A stretch of 60,716 nt of DNA from Betaproteobacteria bacterium (GCA_005884455.1 VBCH01000210.1:1-60716), one strand, 5' to 3'; positions 1 to 48,329 are shown, counted from the first letter of the stretch. Notes: generated by a model not told the origin, from the sequence alone. Numbers and translations are program-made.

Positions 1-2
1 TG

Positions 3-743
3 GCGGCGCTCGACCTCGCCGAGCGGCGCCGGGAGCTCGCGTCGCTCTTTTCCTGGGCGATCCCGAACACGCGGGCCCTCGAGGTTCTCGCCGCGCACGC
101 GCCGCTCGTCGAGTGCGGCGCGGGAATGGGGTACTGGTCGGCGCTGCTGCGCGCTCGCGGCATCGACGTCCTCGCCTACGACGCCGCGCCGCCGGGCCGC
201 TCCTCGAAGAACGCGTATCACCGGGCAGCGCGCGAGCCCTGGACGAAGATCCACAGGCAAGCTTCGGTCGTGGCCGCGCGCCGGCATCGCGAGCGCACGC
301 TCGTGCTCTGCTGGCCGCCTTACGACGACGATGCGGCGAGCTACGCCGTGCTGCGGGCCTACCGCGGCGACACGCTCATCTACATCGGCGAGCCCGACGA
401 GGGTGCGACCGGCTCGGTGCGTTTTCACCGCGAGCTGCGGCTCAACTGGACCCTGGGCGAGGCCGTCGATCTTCCGCGCTGGCCGCGCCTGCGCGACACG
501 CTGATGGTCTACCGGCGCAACTCGGAGCGCCGCCCTCATCTCGAGCGGGATCGCTGCTTCGAGTGCAAGCGCTTCATCGCCACCGGCGCCATCGGCCGCT
601 GCGACTGGTGCTTCGAGCGCCGTCCCTCGGCGCTCGCGCTGCAGGTCGGAAAGCACCGCGTCGAGTACGTGCAGGAGATGCTCGACGCGCTGCCGGCTGC
701 GCAGCGCAGCGCGGTGGAGGGAAGTCCAAACAGAATCCGCTAA
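3..743 (+). CDS. Class I SAM-dependent methyltransferase-like protein with C-terminal CxxC...CxxC motif (5' truncated by window edge)
   Basis: Frame is open from base 3: ...FSWAIP...LVECGAGMGYW...VLAYD (SAM motif I ExGxGxG), LCWPP, YIGE; C-terminal CFEC and CDWC. Confidence 0.6.
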   Translation, partial: AALDLAERRRELASLFSWAIPNTRALEVLAAHAPLVECGAGMGYWSALLRARGIDVLAYDAAPPGRSSKNAYHRAAREPWTKIHRQASVVAARRHRERTLVLCWPPYDDDAASYAVLRAYRGDTLIYIGEPDEGATGSVRFHRELRLNWTLGEAVDLPRWPRLRDTLMVYRRNSERRPHLERDRCFECKRFIATGAIGRCDWCFERRPSALALQVGKHRVEYVQEMLDALPAAQRSAVEGSPNRIR

Positions 744-792
744 GGGCTGAAATCCGCCCGGATCGCGGCCGTGTTCCCCGCGCCGGCGCAGC

Positions 793-820
793 TTGACTTT
801 GGGGCTGCAGCGCCTAGCAT
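793..820 (+). promoter_or_regulatory. Putative sigma70 promoter for the small downstream ORF
   Basis: TTGACT (793-798), 16 nt spacer, TAGCAT (815-820). Confidence 0.35.
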
Positions 821-866
821 CTAGTCGTTGCGTAACGCGGGACGTGTCCAAACGCGGCGGCTGCAC

Positions 867-1166
867 ATGTCGAACGGTCCAACCGACAAGCCGGTGAATG
901 CCGAGGCGCTCGCAGGCGCGCTGCGGGCCCTGGGGATGCTCTACGGCGCGAGCCAGCCGCTCGCGGAGATCATCGCTGGCGCGAAGAGCGAGGCCGAGGC
1001 GATCCGCATGTACATCGAGCGCGAACGTCCGCACCTGCTCGCGAGCTACGACCTCGAGACGCTGGTGAAGATGGTGCAGGGCGCGCGCGAGGCGAAGACC
1101 GACGCCAAGCACGGCGTGGAACAGTTCAGCCCGAGCGACAAGCCGCCCGCCAAACGCCGGAGCTAG
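867..1166 (+). CDS. Hypothetical protein (~99 aa, predicted helical)
   Basis: ATG at 867 within the 828-1166 ORF; host-like codon usage; no motif recognised. Confidence 0.55.
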   Translation: MSNGPTDKPVNAEALAGALRALGMLYGASQPLAEIIAGAKSEAEAIRMYIERERPHLLASYDLETLVKMVQGAREAKTDAKHGVEQFSPSDKPPAKRRS

Positions 1167-1208
1167 TCGAGGCAGCGGGTGCGCGCTTGATTCCGTTCCG
1201 CGGAATTA

Positions 1209-1250
1209 TTGATGCCTGTCAAGCTTTTACCGTTACCCCGGCTGTAAAAT
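1209..1250 (+). promoter_or_regulatory. Crp/Fnr-type box plus -10 element, fdh promoter
   Basis: TTGATGCCTGTCAA (1209-1222), TAAAAT (1245-1250), ATG at 1257; box centre is 41.5 nt upstream of the ATG. Confidence 0.7.
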
Positions 1251-1256
1251 GGGCCC

Positions 1257-3002
1257 ATGAACGACCGAGCATCTTCGGCGCCCGCGAAAGAAAAGCAGTC
1301 CATAAAACGCGCGCGGGTGCGCGGCACGCCCAAGGGACGCAGCGTCGACCCCAAAGCCCGGGAGGAAGTACGCGACCTCCTGAAAGACGCGCCGCTCCGG
1401 CGCGACCTGCTGATCGAATACCTGCACCGCGTCCAGGATCGCTACGGGCATCTCTCGGCTGCGCACCTCGTCGCCCTCGCCGAGGAGATGAAGCTCGCAA
1501 TGACCGAAGTCTACGAGGTCGCGACCTTCTACCACCATTTCGACGTGATCAAGGAGGGTGAGGCGCCGCCGCCCGCGATCACGGTGCGCGTGTGCGACTC
1601 GATCGCGTGCGACATCGCAGGCTCGCATGAACTGCTGGCGAAGCTGCCCGGGATTCTCGGCACGGGCGTGCGCGTGCTGCACGCCCCCTGCATCGGGCGC
1701 TGCGAGACCGCTCCCGCCGCCGTCGTCGGGCAGAACCCGCTGCCTCACGCGAGCGCGGAAAAGATCGCCGCGCTGGTGAAAGCCAAGGCGCTGAAACACC
1801 CGGCGCCGGGCTCGCGCGAATCGCATCCGCACGGCGATATCGTGAGCCCGCCTTGCGTCGACTACGCGGCGTACCGCGCGAAAGGCGGGTACGGGCTCGC
1901 CAAGGCCTGCATCGACGGAGCGAAGAAGCGCGAAGAGGTAATCGCGGTCATGGAGGACTCCGGCCTTCGCGGACTCGGCGGCGCGGGCTTTCCCGCGGGA
2001 CGCAAGTGGAAATCGGTCGCCGCGGAGCCGGCCCCGCGGCTATGCGCGATCAACATCGACGAAGGCGAGCCGGGAACGTTCAAGGACCGCTGGTACCTCG
2101 AGCGCGATCCGCACCGCTTTGTAGAAGGAGCGCTTATCGCGGCCTGGGCGGTCGGCATCGACGAGATCTACATCTATCTTCGCGACGAGTACCACGGCTG
2201 CCGCGCGATCCTGGAAAGGGAAATCGGGGCGCTGCGGGCGAATCCGCCGTGCAGGCTGCCGCCGATCCATCTTCGCCGCGGCGCGGGCGCCTACATCTGC
2301 GGCGAGGAATCGGCGATGATCGAGTCGATCGAGGGCAAGCGCGGCATGCCGCGGCTGCGCCCGCCTTACGTCGCGCAGGTGGGGCTGTTCGGCCGGCCGA
2401 CCCTGGAGCACAACATGGAGACGCTGCACTGGGTGCGCGAAATCCTTGAAAAGGGCGCCGACTGGTTCGCCTCCCAAGGACGCAACGGCCGCAAGGGCCT
2501 GCGCTCCTTCTCGGTGAGCGGGCGCGTGAAGAAGCCCGGCGTGCATCTCGCGCCGGCCGGGATCACGGTGAAGGAATTGATCGCCGAACACTGCGGCGGG
2601 ATGCAGGACGGCCACAAGTTCTACGGCTATCTTCCCGGCGGAGCCTCGGGCGGGATCCTCCCGGCGGCGATGGGCGACATTCCGCTCGACTTCGATACAC
2701 TGAACCAGTACGGCTGCTTTATCGGCTCCGCCGCGATAGTTATCTTCTCGGATAGAGACAAAGCCACGACCGCCGCGAGTAACCTCATGAAGTTCTTCTC
2801 CGAGGAGTCGTGCGGGCAGTGCACGCCCTGCAGGGTCGGCACGGCAAAGGCGCTCAAGCTCATGGAAAAAAAGAAATGGGACCAGCCGCTGCTGAAGGAA
2901 CTTTCCCAGGCGATGATGGACGCATCCATATGCGGGCTGGGGCAGGCCGCCCCCAACCCGGTGCTTTCTGTGATGAAATACTTTCCGCAGGAGATCGCGT
3001 GA
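1257..3002 (+). CDS. NAD-dependent formate dehydrogenase beta/diaphorase subunit (NuoE+NuoF-like fusion; FMN, [2Fe-2S], [4Fe-4S])
   Basis: EVATFY and CDSIAC...CIGRC ([2Fe-2S]); GLGGAGFP, DEGEPGTFKDR, GAGAYICGEESA, SCGQCTPCRVG, CGLG; directly upstream of the FDH alpha subunit. Confidence 0.93.
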   Translation: MNDRASSAPAKEKQSIKRARVRGTPKGRSVDPKAREEVRDLLKDAPLRRDLLIEYLHRVQDRYGHLSAAHLVALAEEMKLAMTEVYEVATFYHHFDVIKEGEAPPPAITVRVCDSIACDIAGSHELLAKLPGILGTGVRVLHAPCIGRCETAPAAVVGQNPLPHASAEKIAALVKAKALKHPAPGSRESHPHGDIVSPPCVDYAAYRAKGGYGLAKACIDGAKKREEVIAVMEDSGLRGLGGAGFPAGRKWKSVAAEPAPRLCAINIDEGEPGTFKDRWYLERDPHRFVEGALIAAWAVGIDEIYIYLRDEYHGCRAILEREIGALRANPPCRLPPIHLRRGAGAYICGEESAMIESIEGKRGMPRLRPPYVAQVGLFGRPTLEHNMETLHWVREILEKGADWFASQGRNGRKGLRSFSVSGRVKKPGVHLAPAGITVKELIAEHCGGMQDGHKFYGYLPGGASGGILPAAMGDIPLDFDTLNQYGCFIGSAAIVIFSDRDKATTAASNLMKFFSEESCGQCTPCRVGTAKALKLMEKKKWDQPLLKELSQAMMDASICGLGQAAPNPVLSVMKYFPQEIA

Positions 3003-3018
3003 TGGCGAGAGGTGACCG

Positions 3019-5826
3019 ATGGACCGCCTGAGCACCGCGCAAGCGGCGACGATGCCGGTTGAGTTCAAGCTGAACGGCAAGACCGTCGTCGGCAGGTCGG
3101 ATGAGACCCTCATCGAGACGGCCAGGCATTACGGCATCGAGATCCCGCACCTGTGCTACAAGGAAGGCATGCGGCCGGACGGCAACTGCCGCGCCTGCGT
3201 GGTCGAGATCAAGGGCGAGCGAGTGCTCGCGCCCTCCTGCTGCCGCTACCCCAAGGACGGCATGGAGGTGACGACCGACAACCCGCGCTCGGTCGCCAGC
3301 CAGAAGATGGTGCTCGAGCTGCTCCTCGCGGACATCCCGGAGAAATCCTACACCCTCGACTCCGAGCTCGATCATTGGGCGAAAGCCCTGAAAGTCGGCA
3401 AGCCGCGCTTCGAGTCGCGGCACCAGCCGAAGCCCGATCTGTCGCACTCGGCGATCGCGGTGAACCTCGACGCCTGCATCCAGTGCACGAGGTGCCTGCG
3501 CGCCTGCCGCGAGGAGCAGGTGAACGACGTGATCGGGTACGCGTTCCGCGGCGAGCATTCGAAGATCGTGTTCGACCTCGACGATCCCATGGGCAACTCC
3601 ACCTGCGTCGCCTGCGGCGAATGCGTGCAGGCCTGCCCGACGGGCGCTTTGATGCCCGCCCGCGAAGTCGGCAAGATCCAGGCGGACAAGACCGTGGACT
3701 CGGTCTGCCCCTATTGCGGGGTCGGATGTCTCCTGACCTACAACGTCAAGGGCAACAAGATCCTCTGGGTGCAGGGCCGCGAAGGGCCCGCCAACAGCAA
3801 GCGCCTGTGCGTGAAGGGACGCTACGGCTTCGACTACGTGCAGCACAGACATCGCCTGACAAAGCCGCTTATCCGCAAGCCCGGCGTGAAGAAGCACAAG
3901 GACTTCAGCGTCGATCCGGACGACTGGTCGCAAGTCTTCCGCGAGGCGAGCTGGGGGGAAGCGCTCGATTTCGCGGCAAATGGCCTGCGCGACATCCGCG
4001 ACAGGCACGGGAAAAAATCGCTCGCCGGTTTCGGCTCGGCGAAGGGCACGAACGAGGAAGCCTATCTCTTCCAGAAGTTGGTGCGCACCGGCTTCGGCTC
4101 GAACAACGTCGATCACTGCACGCGCCTGTGCCACGCCTCGTCGGTCGCGGCGCTTATGGAGGGCATCAACTCGGGCGCCGTATCGAACCAGGTGCGCGAC
4201 GTGATGAAAGCGGAGGTGATCTTTCTCATCGGAGCGAATCCCACGGTCAATCACCCCGTCGCAGCCACCTGGATGAAGAACGCTGCGAAGGCTGGCGTGA
4301 AGCTCATCGTCGCCGATCCCCGGCGCGGAGATCTCGCCCGCCACGCGACCTACAACCTGCAGTTCAAGGCCGACACCGACGTCGCGCTGCTGAACGCGAT
4401 GCTCCACACCATCGTCGAGGAGGGCCTCGCCAACGAGGCCTTTATCCGCGACCGCACCTCGGGCTACGAGGCGCTCGCCGAGAACGTAGAGAAGTTTTCT
4501 CCGGAGGCGATGGCGCCCGTCTGCGGCATCGACGCCAGGACGATCCGCGAGGTCGCGCGCCTGTACGCGACCTCCAAGGCTTCGATCATCATGTGGGGGA
4601 TGGGAATCTCGCAGCACGTGCACGGCACCGACAATGCCAGATGCCTTATCGCGCTCGCGCTCTGCACCGGCCAGATCGGCAAGCCGGGCTCGGGCCTGCA
4701 TCCCCTGCGCGGCCAGAACAACGTGCAAGGTGCATCGGACTCGGGGCTGATCCCGATGTTCTATCCCGACTATCAGCGCATCGCCACGCCCGAGGCGAAG
4801 GCACGCTTCGAGAAACTCTGGGGCACGGAGCTCGATCCGAAACCCGGGCTGACGGTGGTGGAGATCATGCACGCGGCGAAGAAGGGGGAAATCCGCGGCA
4901 TGTACATCATGGGCGAGAACCCGGCGATGTCCGACCCCGACGTCGACCACGCGCGCGAGGCGCTCGCCGCGCTCGATCACATGGTCGTGCAGGATATCTT
5001 CCTCACCGAGACGGCGTACCTCGCCGACGTGGTGCTGCCGGCGACCGCGTGGCCGGAAAAGGTCGGCACCGTCACCAACACCGACCGCATGGTGCAGCTC
5101 GGCAGGAAGGCGATCGAGCCGCCCGGCGAGGCGAAAGAAGATCTCTGGCTCATCAACGAGCTCGCCAAGCGCATGGGACTTCCCTGGAACTACACGCATC
5201 CACGCGAAGTGTTCGACGAGATGCGCCAGTGCATGGACTCGATCGCGGGGATCACCTGGGAGCGCCTCGAGCGCGAGTCCTCGGTGACCTATCCGTGCGA
5301 GAAGGAAGGCGATCCGGGAGAACCCGTCGTATTCGTCACGCATTTCCCCACGACCACGGGCCGCGGCAAGTTCGTTCCCGCGGACCTGATCCCGGCGGCG
5401 GAGCGCCCGGACGACCGGTATCCGATGGTGCTCATCACGGGCAGGCAGCTCGAGCACTGGCACACCGGCGCGATGACACGCCGCGCGAGCGTGCTCGACC
5501 ACATCGAGCCCGAGCCCGTCGCGTCGTTCCATCCTTTCGACCTCGAGCGGTTCGGGGTGAAGGCAGGCGAGATCGTGACCGTGGAATCGCGCCGCGGCAG
5601 AATTTCACTGTACGCCCGCGCCGACGACGGCACACCGGCGGGCGCGGTGTTTATCCCTTTCTGTTATTACGAAGCGGCGGCGAACATGCTCACCAACCCG
5701 GTGCTCGACCCGGTCGGCAAAATCCCCGAGTTCAAGTACTGCGCGGTGAAAGTCACCAAAGGCGGGCCCGTGCCGGTGCACTCGAGCTTTGGCGGCGGGA
5801 CGCTGCTCGCCGAAAAGGCTTCCTGA
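3019..5826 (+). CDS. fdhF: Formate dehydrogenase alpha subunit (Mo/W-bis-PGD, Cys ligand; two-subunit Fdh1-like architecture)
   Basis: N-terminal Fe-S motifs (IPHLC, CRACVV, CIQCTRC, CVACGEC), CPYCGVGC, RLCHASS active site, LRGQNNVQG, PEFKYCAV. Confidence 0.95.
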   Translation: MDRLSTAQAATMPVEFKLNGKTVVGRSDETLIETARHYGIEIPHLCYKEGMRPDGNCRACVVEIKGERVLAPSCCRYPKDGMEVTTDNPRSVASQKMVLELLLADIPEKSYTLDSELDHWAKALKVGKPRFESRHQPKPDLSHSAIAVNLDACIQCTRCLRACREEQVNDVIGYAFRGEHSKIVFDLDDPMGNSTCVACGECVQACPTGALMPAREVGKIQADKTVDSVCPYCGVGCLLTYNVKGNKILWVQGREGPANSKRLCVKGRYGFDYVQHRHRLTKPLIRKPGVKKHKDFSVDPDDWSQVFREASWGEALDFAANGLRDIRDRHGKKSLAGFGSAKGTNEEAYLFQKLVRTGFGSNNVDHCTRLCHASSVAALMEGINSGAVSNQVRDVMKAEVIFLIGANPTVNHPVAATWMKNAAKAGVKLIVADPRRGDLARHATYNLQFKADTDVALLNAMLHTIVEEGLANEAFIRDRTSGYEALAENVEKFSPEAMAPVCGIDARTIREVARLYATSKASIIMWGMGISQHVHGTDNARCLIALALCTGQIGKPGSGLHPLRGQNNVQGASDSGLIPMFYPDYQRIATPEAKARFEKLWGTELDPKPGLTVVEIMHAAKKGEIRGMYIMGENPAMSDPDVDHAREALAALDHMVVQDIFLTETAYLADVVLPATAWPEKVGTVTNTDRMVQLGRKAIEPPGEAKEDLWLINELAKRMGLPWNYTHPREVFDEMRQCMDSIAGITWERLERESSVTYPCEKEGDPGEPVVFVTHFPTTTGRGKFVPADLIPAAERPDDRYPMVLITGRQLEHWHTGAMTRRASVLDHIEPEPVASFHPFDLERFGVKAGEIVTVESRRGRISLYARADDGTPAGAVFIPFCYYEAAANMLTNPVLDPVGKIPEFKYCAVKVTKGGPVPVHSSFGGGTLLAEKAS

Positions 5827-5839
5827 TCTCGATCAGGTG

Positions 5840-5873
5840 AAAAAAAGCCCCGGGCGACCGGGGCTTTCTGTTT
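5840..5873 (+). terminator. Rho-independent terminator after fdh (probably bidirectional)
   Basis: AAAGCCCCGG-GCGA-CCGGGGCTTT stem-loop, A-run before and TTTCTGTTT after. Confidence 0.85.
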
Positions 5874-5982
5874 CGGGCGGCCTTTGCTACAGCGGCAAGC
5901 GCATAGGGTCGTGGCGCTCGGCGCGTTGCGGAACACCTCATCGCTCCACCGGCGCCTCCCGCGGGTCCGCGCGGCCTGTATC

Positions 5983-6025
5983 TTGATTTCCGTCAATGTT
6001 CGCGCAATCGCGCAACCCTTATAGT
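5983..6025 (+). promoter_or_regulatory. Crp/Fnr-type box plus -10 element, fhs promoter
   Basis: TTGATTTCCGTCAA (5983-5996) and TATAGT (6020-6025). Confidence 0.65.
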
Positions 6026-6077
6026 GTCTCGCCCATAAAATCGACGTAATGCTGTCCCGCAGCAGAAGGACCCGTAG

Positions 6078-7748
6078 ATGGCCTCCGACATCGAAATCGC
6101 ACAGAAGGCCAAGCTCGAGCGCATCTCCAAGATCGCTCTCGCGAAGCTCGGCATTCCCGAGCAGCACCTCGAGCCCTACGGGCATTTCAAGGCGAAGGTG
6201 TCGCTCGAATACTTGGACGGCCTCAAGACGCGCCCGAACGCGAAGCTCGTCCTGGTGACGGCGATGACGCCCACGCCCGCGGGCGAGGGCAAGACGACCA
6301 CCACGGTGGGGCTGGGCGATGCGCTCAACCACATCGGCAAGAAAGCGATGATCTGCCTGCGCGAGCCTTCGCTCGGACCCGTCTTCGGCATGAAAGGCGG
6401 CGCCGCCGGCGGCGGCTACGCGCAGGTGGTGCCGATGGAGGACATCAACCTGCACTTCACCGGCGACTTCAACGCCATCGCGCTCGCGAACAACCTGCTC
6501 GCGGCGATGCTCGACAACCACATCCACCACGGGAACGAATTGGGAATCGACGTGCGGCGCATCGCGTGGAGGCGGGTAGTCGACATGAACGACCGGGCGC
6601 TGCGCGACATCGTCGTGAGCCTGGGAGGTCCGGGCAACGGCTATCCGCGCCAGGACGGATTCGACATCGTGGTCGCCTCCGAGGTGATGGCGATCTTCTG
6701 CTTGTCCACCTCGCTCGACGATCTCAAGGAGCGGCTCGGCAAGATCGTGGTCGGCTACACGCGCGACCAGAAGCCGGTGCTCGCCCGCGATCTCCAGGCC
6801 CACGGCGCGATGACCGTGCTCCTGAAGGACGCAATCAAGCCGAACCTCGTGCAGACGCTCGAGAACAATCCCGCCTTCATCCACGGCGGGCCGTTCGCCA
6901 ACATCGCGCACGGCTGCAACTCCGTGATCGCGACGAGCTCGGCGATGAAGCTCGCAGATTACGTGGTCACGGAAGCGGGCTTCGGCGCGGACCTCGGCGC
7001 GGAGAAATTCATCGACATCAAGTGCCGCAAATCGGGCTTGCGCCCCTCCGCCGCCGTGATCGTCGCGACGGTTCGCGCGATGAAGTATCACGGCGGCGCC
7101 GATCTGAAAACCATCACCCAGGAAAACCTCGCGGCGCTTGAAAAAGGCGTCACCAACCTCGAGCGCCACGTCGAGAACGTGCAGAAGAACTACGGCATTC
7201 CCTGCGTGGTCTCGATCAACCGTTTCAACCAGGACACGCAGAAGGAGCTGGATCTGCTCAAGTCGCGGATCGAGAAACTCGGCGCCAAGGTCGTGCTCGC
7301 GACGCACTGGGGCGACGGCGGCAGGGGCGCAGCGGAGCTCGCGCGCATCGTGGTCGACCTCTGCGAGAGCAAAGGCAACTTCCAGTTCGTGTACGAGGAA
7401 CAAGACACGCTCTGGGACAAGATCAACAAGATCGCGAAGAAGATCTACCGCGCGAGCGAAGTGACCGCCGACGGAAAGGTGCGGGCCCAGATCAAGAAGC
7501 TGCAGGACGACGGCTACGGGCGCTATCCGGTGTGCGTGGCGAAGACCCAGTATTCCTTCTCGACCGATGCGCAGCTGCGCGCGGCGCCCTCGAACCACGT
7601 CGTCAACGTGCGCGAAGTGCGGCTGGCGGCGGGCGCCGAGTTCGTCGTGATGATCTGCGGGGATATCATGACGATGCCGGGGCTCCCCAAGGTGCCTTCG
7701 GCGGTCAAGATCGACCTCGTCGACGGGAAAGTCGTCGGACTGTTCTGA
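6078..7748 (+). CDS. fhs: Formate--tetrahydrofolate ligase
   Basis: [58 protein letters not shown]. Confidence 0.98.
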
Positions 7749-7785
7749 ACGACGCGGGTAGCGGGGCCAACGGGAGGACACCGCC

Positions 7786-8520
7786 ATGCAAGAGCTTCTG
7801 ACGTCGCAGTTCTGGCTGGGGCTCGGGGCCATCATCTGGGTCAACATCATCCTGTCGGGCGACAACGCCGTCGTGATCGCGCTCGCGGCGCGCTCCTTGC
7901 CGTCGCACCAGCAGACGAAGGCGGTCATTTGGGGGGCAGGTGCGGCGGTGGTGCTGCGCATCGTGCTCACGATCGTCGCGGTCGAGTTGCTGAAGCTTTC
8001 CTACCTCAAGCTCCTGGGAGGCGTGCTGCTGCTCTGGATCGCGGTGAAATTGCTGGTTCCGGAGGATGACGGCGGCGACGGAATCAAATCGAGCTCCAAT
8101 CTGCTGGCGGCGATCAAAACCATCCTGATCGCGGATCTGGTGATGAGCCTGGACAATGTCATCGCGGTGGCCGCGGTCGCCAAGGGCAGCATCGTGCTGC
8201 TCGTGCTCGGGTTGCTGATCAGCATCCCGCTGGTGGTTTTCGGCGCTACCATGCTGATGAAGCTCATGGAGACCTATCCCGTGATCATCACCGTCGGGGC
8301 CGCGCTGATCGGCTATGTGGCGGGCGAGATGCTGGTGACTGACCCGGTCGTGATCGAGTGGTTCAGGGCCAACGCCCACTGGATGATCGACTTCGAGCTC
8401 TTTTCGGTCTTCGGCCGCAAGTTCGAGCTGTCGGTGGCCGGGCTGGCCGGCGCGCTCCTGGTCGTGGCGGTCGGAAAGTGGCTCGGCAGTCGAGAACCAA
8501 CCCAAGCCGGGAGAAGTTGA
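7786..8520 (+). CDS. TerC family (YjbE-like) integral membrane protein
   Basis: LSGDNAVVIALA and ADLVMSLDNVIAVA motifs; multiple TM helices. Confidence 0.9.
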   Translation: MQELLTSQFWLGLGAIIWVNIILSGDNAVVIALAARSLPSHQQTKAVIWGAGAAVVLRIVLTIVAVELLKLSYLKLLGGVLLLWIAVKLLVPEDDGGDGIKSSSNLLAAIKTILIADLVMSLDNVIAVAAVAKGSIVLLVLGLLISIPLVVFGATMLMKLMETYPVIITVGAALIGYVAGEMLVTDPVVIEWFRANAHWMIDFELFSVFGRKFELSVAGLAGALLVVAVGKWLGSREPTQAGRS

Positions 8521-8535
8521 GTGCGCCGCGTGGCC

Positions 8536-8577
8536 TTGACCTCTGTCAAGGTTGCTTAAGGGGCTTGTGGCGATAAT
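8536..8577 (+). promoter_or_regulatory. Crp/Fnr-type box plus -10 element, tctCBA promoter
   Basis: Inverted repeat CCTTGAC-CTCT-GTCAAGG (core 8536-8549) and GATAAT (8572-8577). Confidence 0.7.
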
Positions 8578-8673
8578 CGACGCGCGAAATGCGGCAGGTG
8601 AATAAAATAGATGGAACCCGCCCGTGCTGATGGGGTCCATTCCGTTTGGTGTCCTGGCAATAGGAGGAGAGCG

Positions 8674-9687
8674 ATGCGCAACTTTACCGATCGCGACTGG
8701 CGCGGAACCACTGCGCTGACGCTGTTCGCCGCGGCCGCGGCCATGCCCACCCAGGCGCTTGCGGCCTGGGAACCCACGAAGACGGTGGAGTTCATCGTGC
8801 CCGCCGGCACTGGCGGGGGCGCCGATCAGATGGCGCGGATCATTCAAGGCATCATTGCCAAGAACAAGTTGATGAAGGAGCCGATGGTCGTTGTCAACAA
8901 GGCCGGAGGCGCGGGTGCCGAGGGCTTCCTGGACGTCAAAGAGTCGAAAGGCGATCCGCACAAGATCATCATCACCCTGTCGAATCTGTTCACGACCCCG
9001 CTTGCGACCAATACGCCGTTCAACTGGCGCGATCTGACGCCTGTTCAGATGATGGCCCTGGACAACTTCGTCCTATGGGTCAACGCGGAGACGCCCTACA
9101 AGACGCCCACGGAATACCTCGCCGCGGTCAAGGCCGGCGGCGGAAAGTTCAAGATGGGCGGGACGGGCTCGAAGCAGGAGGATCAGATCATCACCGTCGC
9201 TATCGAGAAACAGACCGGGGCCAAGTTCATCTACATTTCGTATCGCGGCGGCGGCGAAGTGGCGGTGCAGCTGGTGGGCAAGCACGTCGATTCGACGGTC
9301 AACAACCCGATCGAAGCGGTGGCCCAGTGGCGCGCGGGGTCGCTGCGGCCGCTGTGCGTGTTCGACGCCAAGCGCATGCCCTACAAGACGAAGATCACCA
9401 AGACGATGTCCTGGTACGACATTCCGCCGTGCAAGGACACCGGCCTCGACGTCGAATACCTGATGCTGCGCGGCATCTTCATGCCCGGTGGTGTGACCGA
9501 GGAGCACAAACAGTACTACGTCGACCTGCTGAAGAAGGTGCGGGAAACCCCCGATTGGAAGAGCTTTTTGGAGCAGGGCGCGTTCAACCAAACCACGTTG
9601 ACCGGGAAGGAATACGAAGCCTGGGTGGCGCGCGAGGAGGCGCGGCACATCCTGCTCATGAGGGAAGCGGGATTCCTGGCGAAGTAG
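8674..9687 (+). CDS. tctC: Tripartite tricarboxylate transporter substrate-binding protein (TctC/Bug)
   Basis: AGGAGGAG SD then ATG at 8674; signal peptide ending ALA; VPAGTGGGAD, NKAGGAG, YRGGGE. Confidence 0.92.
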   Translation: MRNFTDRDWRGTTALTLFAAAAAMPTQALAAWEPTKTVEFIVPAGTGGGADQMARIIQGIIAKNKLMKEPMVVVNKAGGAGAEGFLDVKESKGDPHKIIITLSNLFTTPLATNTPFNWRDLTPVQMMALDNFVLWVNAETPYKTPTEYLAAVKAGGGKFKMGGTGSKQEDQIITVAIEKQTGAKFIYISYRGGGEVAVQLVGKHVDSTVNNPIEAVAQWRAGSLRPLCVFDAKRMPYKTKITKTMSWYDIPPCKDTGLDVEYLMLRGIFMPGGVTEEHKQYYVDLLKKVRETPDWKSFLEQGAFNQTTLTGKEYEAWVAREEARHILLMREAGFLAK

Positions 9688-9762
9688 GATTGGGTGGACG
9701 CGAGGGGTAGGCACCCACGCGTCCAGAACCCCGCACTGCGGGACGGGCGGATCGAGGAGGGG

Positions 9763-10266
9763 ATGGAAAGCGAGCAACAACATTCGGCGGCATCGGTCAG
9801 GGCCGTGGAGATCGGTGTCGCCGTCGTCATATTCCTCTTCGGTGCCCTGGTCGTATTCGACAGCTACCGCCTGGGTGCCCGATGGGGAGACGACGGGCCG
9901 CAAGCCGGCTATTTTCCCTTTTATGTCGGCCTGTTCATCTGCGCCTCCGGCGCAGCGATCTTCGTCCGTGCTTTGCGAAACACGGCGTTCGCCGCCGAAT
10001 CGTTCGTGTCGCGCGAGGAGCTGAAGAAAATACTGACGGTTCTCGTGCCGACGATCGTGTATGTCTCCGTGATCGGGTATCTGGGTTTCTACGTCGCGTC
10101 CACGCTCTATATCGCCTACTTCATGTGGCACTTGGGTAAGTACGCCTGGTTCAAGATCGCGCCGGTCTCGATAGGCGTCAGCGTCGCGTTTTTTCTGATC
10201 TTCGAAATATGGTTCTCGGTGCCTCTTCCCAAAGGGCCGCTCGAGGCTGCGTTGGGACTCAATTGA
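9763..10266 (+). CDS. tctB: TTT small membrane subunit TctB
   Basis: About 4 TM helices, GPQAGYFP, C-terminal VPLPKGP; lies between tctC and tctA. Confidence 0.88.
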   Translation: MESEQQHSAASVRAVEIGVAVVIFLFGALVVFDSYRLGARWGDDGPQAGYFPFYVGLFICASGAAIFVRALRNTAFAAESFVSREELKKILTVLVPTIVYVSVIGYLGFYVASTLYIAYFMWHLGKYAWFKIAPVSIGVSVAFFLIFEIWFSVPLPKGPLEAALGLN

Positions 10267-10320
10267 GGGCCGTGGCGGCGGATTAGCTCGCCGGCGCTTG
10301 CGCTGGTAAGGGGAGGCTGA

Positions 10321-11832
10321 GTGGAGGAAATCAACGCGCTGCTGCAGGGGTTCGGGGTCGCGCTGTCCCCGCTCAACCTGCTGCTGATGTTCGTCGGGGT
10401 CGTCCTGGGCATCATCATCGGCGTGCTGCCTGGCTTGGGCGGCGCGAACGGCGTCGCCATCCTGCTGCCTCTCACGTTCTCGATGGCGCAGCAGCCCGGC
10501 GGCACGACCTCCGCGATCATCCTGCTCTCGTGCATCTATTGGGGCGCGCTGTTCGGCGGAGCGATCACGTCTATCCTCTTCAACATTCCCGGTGAACCCT
10601 GGTCGGTCGCGACCACTTTCGACGGCCACCCGCTCGCGCAGCTGGGGCGCGCGGGGAGCGCGCTGACGGCGGCGTTTACATCCTCGTTCATCGGGGCCCT
10701 GATCGCCGTGATCATGATCACGTTTCTCTCGCCCGTCGTGGCGGGTTTTGCGCTGCGCTTCGGCCCGCCGGAATTCTTCTCGGTATACCTGCTCACCTTC
10801 TGCGCCTTCGTCGGCATGAGCGGCGGCAACGCCGCGAAGACCATCGCTTCCATGATGATCGGGTTCGCGCTGGCCGCCGTCGGCCTGGACAGCGTCACCG
10901 GGACCCTGCGGCTCACGTTCGGATTCACCTCGCTCCTGAAAGGGTTCGATTTCCTGATCGCAGTGATCGGCCTCTTCGGCATCGGCGAAATTCTGGAGAC
11001 GCTCGAGGAAGGCCTCGCGTTCAAGGGAGCGAGCGCGCGGATCAACTTCAAGGTCGTGCTCGAAACGTGGAAAGAGCTGCCGCGCTACTGGGCGACCTCG
11101 CTGCGCAGCGCCGCGGTGGGTTGCTTCATGGGAATCGTGCCCGGCGGGGCGACGCCGGCCTCTTTCATGAGCTATGGCCTCGCGCGCCGTCTCTCCAAGG
11201 ACGGCAATGACTTCGGCAGCGGCAAGGTCGAGGGCGTCGTCGCTCCGGAGACCGCGGCTCACGCCGCCGGCACTTCGGCGCTCCTGCCGATGATCACGCT
11301 CGGGGTACCGGGATCGCCCACGGCCGCGGTGCTGCTCGGGGGCCTGCTGATCTGGGGACTCCAGCCCGGCCCGCTGCTGTTCGTCGAAAAACCGGACTTC
11401 GTGTGGGGACTGATCGCCAGCATGTATCTCGGCAACATAGCCGGCCTGATCGTCGTGCTGACCTGTGTTCCGCTTTTCGCCGCGATCCTTCGCATCCCCT
11501 TTTCGATCATCGCGCCCGTCATCATCGTGATCTGCGCGATCGGGGCGTACACCGTGCACAACTCGATGTTCGACGTCTATCTGATGGTCGCGTTCGGCGT
11601 GCTCGGCTATGCTTTCAAAAAGCTCGGCTATCCGCTCGCGCCGTTGGTGCTGGCGCTCGTTCTGGGCGACCGGGCCGAGGAAAATTTCCGCAACGCGATC
11701 AAGGGCTCCCAGGGCGATCTTCTGGTCTTCTTCTCGAACGGGCTGGTGGGAGGCCTGACCAGTCTCGCCTTGCTGCTGCTGTTCTGGCCGTTCATCCGTG
11801 CGGGTTGGCGGATGGTGCTCGGAAAAAGCTGA
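10321..11832 (+). CDS. tctA: TTT large membrane subunit TctA
   Basis: GVLPGLG, ILFNIPG, DGHPLA, APETAAHA, LGVPGS, GLQPGP. Confidence 0.95.
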   Translation: MEEINALLQGFGVALSPLNLLLMFVGVVLGIIIGVLPGLGGANGVAILLPLTFSMAQQPGGTTSAIILLSCIYWGALFGGAITSILFNIPGEPWSVATTFDGHPLAQLGRAGSALTAAFTSSFIGALIAVIMITFLSPVVAGFALRFGPPEFFSVYLLTFCAFVGMSGGNAAKTIASMMIGFALAAVGLDSVTGTLRLTFGFTSLLKGFDFLIAVIGLFGIGEILETLEEGLAFKGASARINFKVVLETWKELPRYWATSLRSAAVGCFMGIVPGGATPASFMSYGLARRLSKDGNDFGSGKVEGVVAPETAAHAAGTSALLPMITLGVPGSPTAAVLLGGLLIWGLQPGPLLFVEKPDFVWGLIASMYLGNIAGLIVVLTCVPLFAAILRIPFSIIAPVIIVICAIGAYTVHNSMFDVYLMVAFGVLGYAFKKLGYPLAPLVLALVLGDRAEENFRNAIKGSQGDLLVFFSNGLVGGLTSLALLLLFWPFIRAGWRMVLGKS

Positions 11833-11844
11833 AAACGGGCGCGC

Positions 11845-12450
11845 TCAGGCGGCCCGCTGCCTGAGGCGGGACAGGGTTTCCGGGGTCAGATTGAGGTAGG
11901 AGGCCAGCTCTTTCTTGGGTATGCGGCCGAGCAGGTCCTGGTGCTTGCGCATGAAGCGCGCAAGGCGACCGGGGGCGTCGAGCAGATGAAGCGTGATCGT
12001 GTGCGCCATCACCTCGGACATCAGCCGCATGACCTCGTATTCGAAGCGCAGCTTCATTTCGATGTGGCGTTCGAGGAACTCGACCCAGTGGGGCATGGAC
12101 AGGCGCGCCACGCGGACCTTGGTGACCGCCGCGATGCTGTAGGGGATGGGGGTCTTCATCCGCCACGCGGCGTAGGAGGTGTCCATGTCGGTCTCGGCCG
12201 CGAAGCGCAGGATCATCTCTTTTCCCTGGGGATTGCTCACGACGCGCTTCAGGATCCCGTCCAGGATGAAGAACTGCTCCATGCTCGTGCTGCCTTGGCG
12301 CACCAGCGCCTCGCCCTTCCGGTACTCTGCGACCTCCAGCAGCGGCTCCAGATCGTTCCAGGCGGACGCCGGCATTTCGCGCAGGATCAGGTTCTGCTTG
12401 AGCTGCAGCCGGATGGTGTTGCGCTGCGGGTGATTGACGATTGCCGACAC
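11845..12450 (-). CDS. Crp/Fnr family transcriptional regulator (no cysteines)
   Basis: N-terminal beta-roll ligand domain (KGEALVRQG...ILDG) and C-terminal [19 protein letters not shown] with the ETxSR recognition helix; GTG start. Confidence 0.92.
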
Positions 12451-12492
12451 GGGCAGGACTTGCCGCGAAAGGGCTCAATTAAGCGGGAATTA

Positions 12493-12535
12493 TTGATCGC
12501 AGTCAAGGTGGAAAGGTCCTTAACAATCCTAGACT
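12493..12535 (+). promoter_or_regulatory. Crp/Fnr-type box plus -10 element, oxc-frc promoter (divergent from the regulator)
   Basis: TTGATCGCAGTCAA (12493-12506) and TAGACT (12530-12535); shares GGAATTATTGAT-N4-GTCAAG with the fdh promoter. Confidence 0.72.
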
Positions 12536-12594: not shown

Positions 12595-14394
12595 ATGGGA
12601 ACAGTCGAGGCGCAAGTCGCGACCGGTCAGGACGTGAAGAAGGGGAGCAGCGGCCAGATCGTCGCCAATGTGCAATCACAAGAATTGACCGACGGCTTTC
12701 ATCTGGTCATCGATGCCCTCAAGCTCAACGGCATCGACACGATCTTCGGTCTGCCCGGTATCCCGATCACCGATTTCACCCGCATCGCACAGGCCGAAGG
12801 GATGCGCGTGATTTCGTTCCGCCATGAGCAGAACGCCGGCAACGCCGCCGCCATCGCAGGCTTCATGACGCAAAAGCCCGGTATCTGCCTGACGGTGTCC
12901 GCCCCCGGCTTCCTCAACGGCTTGACGGCTCTCGCCAACGCCACCACCAATTGCTTCCCGATGATCCTTATCAGCGGCTCCTCCGAGCGGGAGATCGTGG
13001 ATCTCCAACAGGGCGACTACGAGGAGATGGACCAGCTCGCAATCGCCAGGCCGCTATGCAAGGCCGCCTTCCGCGTGCTGCACGCGGAGGACATCGGCGT
13101 GGGGATCGCGCGCGCGATCCGCGCCGCAGCCTCAGGCCGCCCGGGCGGCGTCTATCTCGACCTCCCGGCGAAGCTCTTCCCGCAGGCCCTCGACGCGGAG
13201 CTCGGGAAAAAGTCTCTGATCAAGGTGGTGGATCCAGCGCCCAAGCAGATTCCGGCGCCGGAGGCCGTCAGGCGTGCGCTCGAGCTCCTCAAGGGCGCGA
13301 AAAAGCCGCTGGTCATCCTCGGCAAAGGCGCGGCCTATGCGCAGGCCGACGCGGAGATCCGTTCCTTGATCGAGAAGACGGGCGTCCCGTACCTGCCCAT
13401 GTCCATGGCCAAGGGGCTGTTGCCGGATACGCATCCGCAGTGCGCTTCGGCTGCCCGCTCGTTCGTGCTGCCGGAGGCCGACGTGGTGATGCTCGTCGGC
13501 GCGCGCCTTAACTGGCTGCTCTCGCACGGCAAGGGCAAGACCTGGGGCGGCAAGGAGCACAAGGCGTGGGGCGGCCAGAAGTTCATCCAGATCGACATCT
13601 CGCCGCAGGAGATGGACAGCAACGTGCGCATCGACGCGCCCATGGTCGGCGACATCGGTTCCTGCGTGTCGGCGCTGCTCGCGGCGATTAACTCAACTGC
13701 GGGCTCGAGCTGGCCCAAGCCGCCGGCGGAGTGGCTGGGCGCGATCGCCGAGCGCAAGAACAAGAACATCGCGAAGCTGGCGGAGACCCTCGCCAAGAAT
13801 CCGACGCCGATGAGCTTCCACAGCGCGCTTGCCGTGGTGCGCGACATCGTCAAAGCCAACCCGGACGCGTGCCTCGTCAACGAAGGCGCCAACGCGCTCG
13901 ATTTCACCCGCAGCATCGTCGACATGTACAAGCCGCGCAAGCGCCTGGACGTCGGCACCTGGGGCATCATGGGCATCGGCATGGGCTTTTCGGTCGCCGC
14001 CGCCGTGGTCAGCGGCCAGCCGGTGATCGCGATCGAGGGCGACAGCGCCTTCGGCTTCTCCGGCATGGAAGTCGAGACGATATGCCGCTACAACCTGCCG
14101 GTCTGCGTGGTGGTCTTCAACAACAACGGCGTCTACCGCGGCACCGACGTCAATCCGACCGGCGGCCCCGACGTGGCGCCCACCGTGTTCGTCAAGAATG
14201 CGCGCTACGACAAGCTGATCGAGGCCTTCGGCGGCGTGGGCGTGCACGCGACGACCCCGGCCGAGCTGCGCAAAGCGATGGAAGAGGCCATCCGCTCGCG
14301 CAAGCCCACGCTCATCAATGCCGTCATCGATGAGAGCGCCGGCACCGAAAGCGGTCGTATCACCAGCCTGAACCCGAGCGCAAAAAAGAAATAG
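12595..14394 (+). CDS. oxc: Oxalyl-CoA decarboxylase (ThDP-dependent)
   Basis: AAGGAG SD then ATG at 12595; [51 protein letters not shown]. Confidence 0.97.
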
Positions 14395-14416: not shown

Positions 14417-15688
14417 ATGGAAGCTTTAAAGGGCGTACGCATCCTCGACCTGACCCATGTGCAGGCGGGGCCGACGTGTTCGCAGCTGCTCGCCTGGATG
14501 GGCGCGGACGTCATCAAATTCGAGAACCCACAGGGCGACGCGACGCGCGGCCAGCTGCGCGACGTCCCCAACGCCGACAGCCTGTACTTCACGATGCTCA
14601 ACTGCAACAAGCGCTCGATCACTGTCAACATGAAGAGCGCCGAGGGCAAGCAGGTGTTCGTCGATCTCCTGAAGAAGTGCGACATCATCATGGAGAACTT
14701 CGGCCCGGGCGTGCTCGATCGTTTCGGCTTCACCTGGGAGAAGATCCACGAGATCAATCCCAAGATCGTGATGGGCTCGATCAAGGGCTTCGGCTCGAGC
14801 GGCCCCTACGCCGACTTCAAGGCCTACGAGAACGTGGCGCAGGCGATGGGCGGCGCGATGAGCACGACCGGCGTACCCGACGGCCCGCCGTTCGTCACCG
14901 GCGCGCAGATCGGCGACTCGGGCACCGGCCTGCACCTCGCCATCGGCCTGCTGGCCGCGCTCAGGCAGGCCGACCGCACGGGCAAAGGCCAGTACGTCGA
15001 GGTGGCGATGATGGACGGCGTCATGAACCTGTGCCGCGTGAAATTCCGTGATCACCAGCGCCTCATGCGCGGCGATATGCCCGAGTATTCGGTCCCGACC
15101 TACAAGGGCATGGGCGATGTGCCGCGCGCCGGCAACGACTCCGGTGGCGGCCAGCTCGGCAATGCCATCCATTGCAAGCCGCACGGGGCGAACGACTGGC
15201 TCTACGTGGTGGTGCAGGAAGCGGTGTGGGAGGACCTCGCCAAGCGCATCGGGCCGGATGTGGGCATGCCCGACATGGCCAGCGATCCGCGCTTCGCGAA
15301 GATCGGTGACCGGCGCAAGAACCAGAACCTCATGTGGACGCTGATCAACAAGTTTGCCGAGAAGTACACCAAGCGCGAGCTCATGGCGATCCTGAATCCG
15401 CTGGACGTGCCCTGCGGCCCGATCATGAGCACACAAGACCTCGCGAACGACGAGCACGTCCATGGCCGCGACATGTGGGTCGAGCTTGACCATCCGCAGC
15501 GCGGCAAGTGGTGGAACGTCGGTATGCCGATCAAGCTCTCGGCATCGCCCGCGCTGATCAAGCGCAGCCCGACGCTGGGCGAGCACACCGACGAGGTCCT
15601 GAAGGAAGTCCTCGGCTACGACCAGGCGAGGATCAATTCCCTTAGGAGCGCGGGCGCGTTCTCGGTGCCGCCGAAGAAAGCGGCGTAG
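14417..15688 (+). CDS. frc: Formyl-CoA:oxalate CoA-transferase (CaiB/BaiF family III)
   Basis: HVQAGP, DSLYFTMLNCNKRS, ENFGPG, YENVAQ, GDSGTG (catalytic Asp), GGGQLG loop; adjacent to oxc. Confidence 0.95.
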   Translation: MEALKGVRILDLTHVQAGPTCSQLLAWMGADVIKFENPQGDATRGQLRDVPNADSLYFTMLNCNKRSITVNMKSAEGKQVFVDLLKKCDIIMENFGPGVLDRFGFTWEKIHEINPKIVMGSIKGFGSSGPYADFKAYENVAQAMGGAMSTTGVPDGPPFVTGAQIGDSGTGLHLAIGLLAALRQADRTGKGQYVEVAMMDGVMNLCRVKFRDHQRLMRGDMPEYSVPTYKGMGDVPRAGNDSGGGQLGNAIHCKPHGANDWLYVVVQEAVWEDLAKRIGPDVGMPDMASDPRFAKIGDRRKNQNLMWTLINKFAEKYTKRELMAILNPLDVPCGPIMSTQDLANDEHVHGRDMWVELDHPQRGKWWNVGMPIKLSASPALIKRSPTLGEHTDEVLKEVLGYDQARINSLRSAGAFSVPPKKAA

Positions 15689-15690
15689 CT

Positions 15691-16623
15691 TTGAAAATAG
15701 CCATCGTCGGCCAGCAGGATTTTGGCAAGGCGGTTCTCGAAGCCTTTCTCGCTCGTGGCGACGAGATCGCCGGCGTCTTCTGCGCGCCGGAGAAGGAGGG
15801 AGCGAAGGCCGATCCGCTCAAGGCAGCGGCGCTGGAAAAGGGGCTCAAGATCTTCCAGTTCCAGTCGCTGCGCAACAAGGAAGCGCTCGACGCGATGCGC
15901 GCGCTCAACGCCGACATCGGGATCATGGCCTTCGTGCTGCAGTTCGCGCCGCAGGAGTTCGTGAAGATCCCGAGGAAGGGCACGATCCAGTACCACCCGT
16001 CGCTCCTGCCGAAATACCGCGGGCCGAGTTCGATCAACTGGCCGATCATACGCGGCGACGCCAAGACCGGACTGTCCATCTTCCGCCCGACCGACGGATT
16101 GGACGAAGGCCCAGTGATCCTGCAGAAGGAAACGCCGCTCAGCGCGGATGACACGCTCGGCAGCGTCTATTTCGATCGCTTGTTCCCGATGGGGGTCGCG
16201 GCGATGATCGAGGCTGCAGATCTGGTGATGGCCGGCAAGCATCGCGAGACGGTTCAAGACGAGACCCGCGCGAGCTACGAAGGCTGGTGCCGCGCCGCCG
16301 AGGCGAAAATCAACTGGGCGAGCCACGTCGATTTCACTTACAACCTGATACGCGGGTGCAATCCGGCGCCGGGCGCCTGGACCACGCTGGGCGGAAAGAA
16401 ACTGCAGATCTTCGACAGCCGCAAGCATCTGTTCCGCACCTTCGGCGCGGTCAAGGGCAAGATCGGCGAGATTTCCGAGATCGGCGCGGCGAGTTTCTTC
16501 GTGACCGCTCAGGGCGGACGAATCGAAGTCCTCAAGGCAAAGCACGAGGACGGCAAGAAAGTATCCGCGGCCGAACTCGTAGCCCAGAACGGCCTCACTC
16601 CGGGCACGGTGCTCGGGAGCTGA
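15691..16623 (+). CDS. Formyltransferase resembling the N-terminal 10-formyl-THF hydrolase/transferase domain of ALDH1L1 (would usually be annotated as Fmt)
   Basis: MKIAIVGQ..FG, KADPL, YHPSLLPKYRG, DGLDEG, LFPMG, SYEG, IRGCNPAPGAW; TTG start 2 nt after the frc stop. Confidence 0.85.
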   Translation: MKIAIVGQQDFGKAVLEAFLARGDEIAGVFCAPEKEGAKADPLKAAALEKGLKIFQFQSLRNKEALDAMRALNADIGIMAFVLQFAPQEFVKIPRKGTIQYHPSLLPKYRGPSSINWPIIRGDAKTGLSIFRPTDGLDEGPVILQKETPLSADDTLGSVYFDRLFPMGVAAMIEAADLVMAGKHRETVQDETRASYEGWCRAAEAKINWASHVDFTYNLIRGCNPAPGAWTTLGGKKLQIFDSRKHLFRTFGAVKGKIGEISEIGAASFFVTAQGGRIEVLKAKHEDGKKVSAAELVAQNGLTPGTVLGS

Positions 16624-47810: not shown

Positions 47811-48329
47811 CTACCGGTTTGTGGGCGATGCCGGCGCGACTGGGTTGGTTTCAGGCGGCGCAGCGAGCGGCGGCGCAAATTCGGGAGGAGACTTGGCGGG
47901 ACGGGCGGGCGCGGCGGGCTTGCGCGGCGTACTGCCCAGCTTGCGCCGCTCCTGCTCCGGCAGGCGGTTGTACTCCTCCCACTGCTGTTTCAGCTCCTGT
48001 TTCTTGTCCGGCGGCAGTTTTTCCAGCTTCTTGTAGCGCTCGCGTGCGGCCTGGCGTTCCTTGGGAGTGAGCTTGACCCAGGCTTGCATGCGCCGCTGCA
48101 CGCGCACCTGCTCGTCGGGTTTCATCTTCGGATAACGCTTGGCAATTCCGATCCAATTGCGCTTGCGCACTGGTTCGAGATTGTCCCAGTCGCCCGCGAG
48201 CGGCGCGAGAATCTGCTGCTGCTCTTGCGTCAACTCGCCCCACGTCGGGGGCTTTTTCTGCGGTGTAGCGGCGAGGACGGGAAGCGAGGTGCAGAGCCAA
48301 AGTGCTACTGCGAAGAGCGCTTTAGCCAT
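47811..48329 (-). CDS. DUF3106 family exported protein
   Basis: Signal peptide; repeated W..L.P.....; Pro-rich tail. Confidence 0.8.
   Translation of the reverse strand: MAKALFAVALWLCTSLPVLAATPQKKPPTWGELTQEQQQILAPLAGDWDNLEPVRKRNWIGIAKRYPKMKPDEQVRVQRRMQAWVKLTPKERQAARERYKKLEKLPPDKKQELKQQWEEYNRLPEQERRKLGSTPRKPAAPARPAKSPPEFAPPLAAPPETNPVAPASPTNR

Follow-up and report, generated by a model that had tools for sequence, protein, structure and literature searches.

A candidate oxalate/formate regulon with a short, cysteine-free Crp/Fnr-type regulator and a conserved class II-type operator in Burkholderiales

A stretch of 60,716 nt from a Betaproteobacteria bacterium (GCA_005884455.1, VBCH01000210.1:1-60716), referred to throughout as the window, carries near its left end a cluster of genes for the uptake and breakdown of oxalate and formate, and embedded among them is a gene for a short Crp/Fnr-type regulator. 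A sequence-only reading of this DNA had proposed a self-contained oxalate/formate regulon, in which boxes of the form TTGAY-N4-GTCAA (Y being C or T) precede four plus-strand transcription units at class II spacing and are recognised by the embedded regulator. The features of the cluster are as follows, with positions counted from the first nucleotide of the window.

1209..1222, plus strand: box 1, TTGATGCCTGTCAA, upstream of fdhBA (pattern scan)
1245..1250, plus strand: -10-like hexamer TAAAAT, 22 nt past box 1 (direct reading)
1257..3002, plus strand: fdhB-like NuoE/NuoF fusion, diaphorase subunit of an NAD-linked formate dehydrogenase (2Fe-2S_thioredx, Complex1_51K, NADH_4Fe-4S)
3019..5826, plus strand: fdhA, molybdopterin formate dehydrogenase alpha subunit (TIGR01591, 769 bits, cut-off 666)
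5846..5874, plus strand: GC-rich hairpin with a T-rich tail 3' of fdhA, terminator-like (by eye)
5983..5996, plus strand: box 2, TTGATTTCCGTCAA, upstream of fhs (pattern scan)
6020..6025, plus strand: -10 hexamer TATAGT, 23 nt past box 2 (direct reading)
6078..7748, plus strand: fhs, formate-tetrahydrofolate ligase (PF01268, 888 bits)
7786..8520, plus strand: TerC-family membrane protein, probably co-transcribed with fhs (Pfam)
8536..8549, no strand assigned: box 3, TTGACCTCTGTCAA, half-sites fully palindromic, upstream of tctCBA (pattern scan)
8572..8577, plus strand: -10-like hexamer GATAAT, 22 nt past box 3 (direct reading)
8611..9687, plus strand: tctC (Pfam)
9694..10266, plus strand: tctB (Pfam)
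10321..11832, plus strand: tctA (Pfam)
11845..12450, minus strand: regulator, short Crp/Fnr-type, 201 aa, GTG start, ETLSR recognition helix at the extreme C terminus (Pfam, structure model)
12493..12506, plus strand: box 4, TTGATCGCAGTCAA, in the divergent regulator-oxc region (pattern scan)
12530..12535, plus strand: -10 hexamer TAGACT, 23 nt past box 4 (direct reading)
12595..14394, plus strand: oxc, oxalyl-CoA decarboxylase (NF006721, 1009 bits, cut-off 557)
14417..15688, plus strand: frc, formyl-CoA transferase (TIGR03253, 561 bits, cut-off 504)
15691..16623, plus strand: Fmt-like formyltransferase, directly 3' of frc (Formyl_trans_N and Formyl_trans_C)

Oxc, Frc and FdhA all exceed their NCBIfam equivalog cut-offs, and the identities originally given to fdh, fhs, tctCBA, oxc and frc are upheld by the Pfam and NCBIfam scores. 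The tctCBA genes (8611..11832) encode a tripartite tricarboxylate-type transporter and a candidate oxalate uptake system, with the substrate suggested by gene context only. A scan of the window with the pattern TTGAYNNNNGTCAA gives five matches at four distinct sites (1209, 5983, 8536 and 12493), the palindromic site at 8536 being matched on both strands, and the four boxes reported ahead of fdh, fhs, tctCBA and oxc-frc thus stand against a chance expectation of 0.16 matches (standard deviation 0.49), with five or more reached in 0/100 shuffles. Throughout the source genome's assembly (G000; 3,616,050 bases in 311 contigs, rated 96% complete) there are 15 matches corresponding to 11 distinct sites, 4/11 of which lie within the 12-kb cluster, and the reversed control pattern gives 0 forward matches and 1 reverse match. 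Direct reading also bears out the sharing of GGAATTATTGAT together with GTCAAG between the fdh and oxc copies. The oxc copy, box 4, also lies ahead of the regulator gene, which is divergent from oxc, at 42 nt from its start codon.

Conservation of the boxes was followed in a scan of one genome per species, in which 206 relatives of the regulator turned up; of their loci the 80 best were used, and these encode regulators 73-97% identical to that in the window and come, by their titles, from metagenome-assembled genomes of uncultured Burkholderiales or Betaproteobacteria. The 80 loci keep the gene order fmt-frc-oxc / regulator / tctABC-terC-fhs-fdhAB. Counting exact matches to TTGA-N6-TCAA no more than 300 nt upstream, in loci where 250 nt or more of sequence was available before the gene, a box precedes oxc in 56/56 loci, fhs in 42/55 and tctC in 40/58 (43/58 if one mismatch is allowed), and none is found upstream of the internal control genes terC (0/53), fdhA (0/23), tctA (0/64) and fmt (0/54), or 0/194 in total. 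A box upstream of frc is present in 8/59 loci, in all eight of which there is no oxc match between frc and the regulator. At most of the fhs and tctC misses the best weak match falls in coding-like sequence (fdhA-like before fhs, terC-like before tctC), which suggests that these misses reflect fused operons. Where the regulators are only 51-69% identical a box is still found before oxc, frc or a thiamine diphosphate (ThDP) gene (8/8 and 20/20 loci), and in one genome, G385, oxc is on a different contig from the regulators yet has two boxes before it. This small genome has three regulator paralogs, two of which (loci L115 and L116) are in loci that contain neither oxalate genes nor boxes.

A site consensus was drawn from 146 orthologous boxes, of which 117 are distinct. 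Among the distinct boxes 94 have C and 23 have T at position 5, and 101 have G and 16 have A at position 10; because C prevails at the one position and G at the other, the family-wide operator is, as judged from these alignments, the symmetric TTGAC-N4-GTCAA, which GG usually follows on the side of the promoter. The asymmetric description in the sequence-only reading, with TTGAY on the left and a consistent GTCAA on the right, therefore reflects a local variant, namely the TTGAT left halves found in the window.

The distance from the box to the promoter is as constant as had been proposed, both in the window, where all four boxes are followed by their -10 hexamers after 22-23 nt, and among the relatives. 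At this same distance there is a TANNNT hexamer in 53/53 distinct oxc promoters, a -10-like hexamer in 42/42 distinct fhs promoters and 8/8 distinct frc promoters, and a NANAAT-type hexamer in 27/32 distinct tctC promoters, so that the 22-23 nt spacing holds in 130/135 distinct promoters when all are pooled. With the hexamer placed at -12 to -7, the box centre computes to -41.5 to -42.5, and in the window transcription would be predicted to start near 1257, 6032, 8584 and 12542. In three distant relatives oxc or fhs is preceded by two boxes in tandem whose centres are exactly 40 bp apart (L117 7711-7764; L128 11213-11266; L113 7957-8010), with the proximal box again 22 nt from the -10. A box at -41.5, and boxes in tandem, constitute the architecture of class II and tandem CRP/FNR-dependent promoters. 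A consensus promoter scan found no canonical -35/-10 pair before any of the four units. The left half-site TTGAC does agree in five of six letters with TTGACA, the sigma-70 -35 consensus, and the palindrome could then be a mere -35 hexamer that involves no regulatory protein; this is scarcely credible, given that 30-31 nt separate the left half-site from the -10, too great a distance, that the right half-site GTCAA is as strongly conserved as the left, and that the element is missing from the orthologous promoters of genomes without the regulator.

The distribution of the regulator was examined in 401 genomes sampled evenly from Burkholderiales, the counts including one unpublished genome, G205, that has both the regulator and oxc. 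Orthologs of the regulator are present in 78/401 genomes, all with E<=1e-60 and none between 1e-60 and 1e-20, and oxc is present in 72/401; comparison of the two tables gives 62 genomes with regulator and oxc, 16 with the regulator only and 10 with oxc only. In the rest of the class 0/350 genomes have a match to the regulator at E<=1e-25. Genus names attached to the homologs include Collimonas, Herminiimonas, Noviherbaspirillum and Telluria, so that cultured genera are represented; the ortholog of Collimonas fungivorans (locus L121) is 62% identical. In two of the ten oxc-only genomes oxc is at a contig end and the locus is uninformative; at the eight informative oxc loci without the regulator, which represent two families, TTGA-N6-TCAA is absent near oxc, tctC and fdhB. 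A GntR/FCD gene is situated beside oxc in both of the regulator-less loci that were checked (L104 5569-6351 and L109 5359-6303), an apparent replacement by an unrelated regulator family. The claim that the boxes are tied to the regulator holds in part: they are absent at the eight oxc loci that lack it, but the palindrome is over-represented elsewhere in genomes that also lack it. Genome-wide counts of the palindrome were dropped as a proxy for the presence of the regulator, other regulators using the same palindrome.

The regulator itself conforms to the description in the sequence-only reading, with no cysteine among its 201 residues and an ETLSR recognition helix. There is no conserved cysteine column among 28 orthologs (down to 51% identity), and E191, T192, L193, S194 and R195 are invariant in 28/28 of them, as are K68, R69, R82, Y93, W96, Y104, H7, P8 and H155, with R97 nearly invariant. 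The N-terminal domain resembles cyclic nucleotide monophosphate (cNMP)-binding domains (PF00027, E 3.4e-10, 40.2 bits, cut-off 27.5). An AlphaFold model (mean predicted local distance difference test score, pLDDT, 83.6) places strands at residues 39-118 and helices at 130-169, 179-185 and 190-200, corresponding to a beta-barrel, a helix of 40 residues and a helix-turn-helix in which the recognition helix forms the C terminus of the protein. Foldseek matches the model to GlxR, CRP, DNR and FNR with E-values of 1e-9 to 1e-10, and the best sequence match among solved structures is PDB 3dn7 (E 8.7e-11). The other Crp-family genes of G000 encode VRREGVT or SREM(V/I)(S/G/N)(R/K) helices. Because cysteine ligands are lacking, oxygen sensing through a [4Fe-4S] cluster is not expected, and the regulator is, to judge from its residues, neither an oxygen-sensing FNR nor a cyclic AMP (cAMP) receptor.

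We consider it probable that this 201-aa protein is a pathway-specific regulator that binds the palindrome at the four promoters and, by class II activation, co-induces the oxalate and formate genes. A dimer would bind TTGAC/T-N4-GTCAA through its ETLSR recognition helices, about 41.5-42.5 bp upstream of the presumed starts, at promoters that have a -10 but no usable -35, and the bound regulator would most likely activate RNA polymerase in the class II manner. The functions induced together would be uptake (tctCBA, and oxlT, described below), oxalyl-CoA decarboxylation and CoA transfer (oxc-frc-fmt), formate oxidation (fdhBA) and entry of formate into the tetrahydrofolate pool (fhs). The effector could be a metabolite of the oxalate pathway (oxalate, formate, oxalyl-CoA or formyl-CoA) accommodated in the beta-barrel domain. 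What the comparisons establish is the presence of the boxes, their constant spacing, their conservation, their occurrence together with the regulator gene, and the family and fold of the protein; we infer that it is the regulator and not another protein that binds the boxes, that binding activates and that a pathway metabolite is the effector.

Several points weigh against this proposal. The match of the regulator to HTH_Crp_2 (PF13545) scores 20.5 bits, under the cut-off of 27, and covers only positions 2-42 of the 70 in the profile; the chain stops at the recognition helix and does not reach the strands that follow it in HTH_Crp_2. CRP-like paralogs that have an R-E-M-V-S-R helix are likewise encoded in G000, on contigs C291 and C128. 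The fdh box is not universal: only 2/80 loci reached past fdhB, and with 20 further loci fetched from genomes that have the regulator, a box is directly upstream of fdhB in 5/11 relatives for which the fdhB 5' end is available, lies 2.2-2.4 kb upstream in 4/11 (in the two checked, ahead of a sucC/sucD-like pair that precedes fdhBA), and is not found within the sequence fetched in 2/11. A protein centred at -41.5 could also in principle repress, and the local regulator might then bind the boxes as a repressor, to be released when it meets a metabolite of the oxalate pathway. A protein bound across the -35 region can keep RNA polymerase off the promoter, and the position of the oxc box 42 nt upstream of the regulator's start codon fits autorepression. 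We nonetheless regard repression as unlikely, in that no recognisable -35 lies 16-18 bp from the -10 in any of the four promoters, the 22-23 nt spacing kept in 130/135 distinct promoters would not be needed by a repressor (as class II geometry is generally understood), and the pairs of boxes at a distance of 40 bp look like the arrays used by activators.

The remaining points of this kind concern the palindrome, which is not private to the proposed regulator. The complete genome of a same-family relative, G013, contains 24 copies, three of them in its oxalate cluster, and among 12 other copies that were inspected some precede ccoN, hemN, a rubrerythrin gene and a cytochrome c gene; the FNR encoded by G013 has a Cys cluster and an LETVSR helix, in which the same E, S and R are found, and there are FNR-like paralogs besides. 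An excess of the palindrome over the reversed control is seen in many genomes both with and without the regulator, and among those without it are G098 (22 versus 3), G036 (27 versus 2) and G251 (11 versus 0). Because the palindrome is shared with an FNR-type regulon and with genomes that lack the regulator, cross-binding is likely in genomes that hold both FNR and the regulator. Finally, the G000 assembly being in 311 contigs and rated 96% complete, an FNR gene could be unassembled.

These observations bear on a different account, in which the boxes are sites of a global FNR/Dnr protein responsive to oxygen or nitric oxide, the genes are under redox control and the neighbouring Crp/Fnr gene is incidental or secondary. 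The occurrence of TTGAC-N4-GTCAA before ccoN, hemN and rubrerythrin genes in G013 with its ExxSR-helix FNR, the over-representation of the palindrome in genomes without the regulator, and the automatic Joint Genome Institute (JGI) name 'dissimilatory nitrate respiration regulator' on some homologs all point in that direction. When the G000 assembly was searched by tblastn with the FNR and FNR-like proteins of G013, however, no ortholog was found, the best matches (24-30% identity) being to CRP-like paralogs; ccoN was not found with the relative's protein either, and for hemN there was only a 29%-identical relative. This absence of an FNR ortholog, ccoN and hemN suggests that the source organism is strictly aerobic compared with G013. 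Furthermore, the eight oxc loci without the regulator have no box, even though G098 among them has 22 palindromes elsewhere, and a box accompanies oxc, frc, tctC and fhs in 84/84 loci examined in genomes with the regulator, whose gene adjoins the box in nearly all. Because boxes are absent at regulator-less oxalate loci, G098 has its palindromes elsewhere and the G000 assembly shows no FNR system, we favour the local regulator and consider control by a global FNR/Dnr protein very improbable. We also note a perfect FNR-type palindrome, TTGATCGCGATCAA, at window coordinates 48435-48448, within an open frame (48305-48685, minus strand) by a crude open reading frame (ORF) check; with the assembly showing no FNR, this may be a chance occurrence.

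The regulon is not self-contained, contrary to what the sequence-only reading had proposed. Scanning G000 with a position weight matrix (PWM) of the boxes identifies an oxalate/formate antiporter gene, oxlT, at the end of contig C177 (TIGR04259, 435 bits for 284 residues, cut-off 335), with a box 116 nt upstream and GAGAAT 23 nt after the box; the box is kept in the sole congener, of 24, that has oxlT. By these features oxlT is predicted to be one convincing added member of the regulon. Three other strong matches to the matrix were not assigned to it: C154:4193 (locus L005; TTGACTCCCGTCAA, 4193-4206), in a divergent mdh-sdhC region where neither strand shows a -10 at the class II distance; C218:8709, near a porin gene and with no -10 at 22-23 nt; and C184:7171, which is inside a long ORF. 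In several families of relatives a box is followed by a sucC/sucD-like ADP-forming CoA ligase pair and then fdhBA (L130 1092-3241; L135 14384-16546), and with this pair the regulon may have acquired a synthetase for oxalyl-CoA or another acyl-CoA.

Judged from the fdh -10 hexamer, transcription would begin at ~1257, exactly where fdhB has its first ATG, and either the fdhB mRNA is leaderless or translation begins later, for example at the GTG at 1317; alignments of fdhB to its relatives begin mostly at about residue 15-25. A metatranscriptome search of soil and sediment RNA libraries gave shares of at most 0.17 and contigs only. In four metatranscriptome sets contigs from relatives, mostly 90-95% alike, span the cluster, and one 6.2-kb contig bridges the regulator and oxc; starts, ends, strand and level are not derivable from such contigs and DNA carry-over is possible, and they are evidence neither for nor against transcription or the positions of its start sites.

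Elsewhere in the cluster, the TerC-family gene (7786-8520) is located between fhs and the tctC box and has no box of its own in any of 53 loci (0/53). The hairpin 3' of fdhA (5846..5874) is not among the terminators listed by a terminator scan. The Fmt-like gene directly follows frc in most related loci as well, and may provide a link from formyl-CoA or formate to the folate pool. The ORFs upstream of box 1 (window 1-1166) give no Pfam match in four frames. Directly downstream of the cluster, at window 16856-19429, is a gene for a CHASE2 sensor fused to a Ser/Thr protein kinase.

Comparison with known systems places the regulator near the FNR/FixK/Dnr branch (Escherichia coli FNR, Pseudomonas aeruginosa Dnr, PDB 3dkw), with which it shares the barrel, the long dimerisation helix, the helix-turn-helix fold, an ExxSR recognition helix and a TTGA-N6-TCAA palindrome near -41.5, a position computed here from the -10. 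It differs from members of that branch in having no cysteine ligands, in its length of 201 aa ending after the recognition helix rather than ~230-250, in a regulon of oxalate/formate catabolism and not respiration, and in C/G instead of T/A at positions 5 and 10 of the site, although the FNR-type sites of the relative are also C/G. Unlike Dnr and NnrR, it is found among oxalate/formate genes in 80/80 loci, and no denitrification gene was seen adjoining it. CprK (chlorophenols, PDB 2h6c) and HbaR (4-hydroxybenzoate), effector-binding, pathway-specific Crp/Fnr activators, offer a plausible analogy in that the FNR cysteine cluster is missing, the gene is beside catabolic genes, the palindrome is at a class II distance and the ligand is presumably a metabolite and not cAMP or oxygen. 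The relation to CprK (2h6c) is at the level of the superfamily only (E 0.26), however, the pathway is a different one, and the CprK dehalobox, TTAAT-N4-ATTAA, differs from the oxalate box. PDB 3dn7, a structural genomics entry from Cytophaga hutchinsonii entitled 'cyclic nucleotide binding regulatory protein', has a comparably short chain (194 aa), which stops just past its ...TPEYLSEIRKK helix, but is from another phylum and of low identity, and the entry name gives no function, ligand or DNA site. E. coli CRP has in common with the regulator the cNMP-binding-like domain (PF00027) and class II promoter geometry; however, its cAMP contacts E72, R82, S83, T127 and S128 align to S92, I102, P103, V147 and M148 of the regulator, and its site is TGTGA-N6-TCACA. 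The GntR/FCD regulators of other Burkholderiales occupy the same position beside oxc-frc in genomes without the Crp/Fnr regulator and presumably do the same job, but are of an unrelated family, and there are no TTGAC-N4-GTCAA boxes in those loci.

Among the forms in which plants and fungi release carbon into soil, oxalate is a major one, and Collimonas is a fungus-associated genus. Full-text literature searches, in which most subscription journals were outside coverage, found no Crp/Fnr-type or other dedicated regulator of oxc/frc for such bacteria, in agreement, within that coverage, with the view that a Crp/Fnr oxalate regulator had not been described. A passage of a 2024 review describes the regulation of the marker genes oxc and frc as understudied, with pH effects as the main data (PMC13409138). 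In a passage of a multi-omics study of Collimonas pratensis, frc, oxc and an oxalate/formate antiporter rise together (PMC12542777); these data are compatible with the genes being co-regulated, in a genus that has members with the regulator, but do not address the regulator itself.

Comparative genomics thus gives good support to a lineage-specific, short, cysteine-free Crp/Fnr regulator with a conserved, predicted class II-type operator before oxalate/formate operons. A candidate regulator, operator and regulon make the joint switching of oxalate uptake, decarboxylation and formate handling in soil bacteria testable, would help in reading metatranscriptomes of the oxalate-carbonate pathway and are a possible part for oxalate biosensors, and they present a natural case of unrelated regulator families, Crp/Fnr here and GntR/FCD elsewhere, swapped at the same operon. 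It is possible, if somewhat doubtful, that this wing-less lineage of ~200-residue Crp/Fnr proteins confined to Burkholderiales senses an acyl-CoA or a one- or two-carbon acid of the oxalate pathway (oxalyl-CoA, formyl-CoA, oxalate or formate) and shares its operator with the resident FNR. If so, one operator would combine the signals for substrate and for oxygen in species with both proteins, and FNR-less aerobes such as the source organism would respond at that same site to substrate alone.

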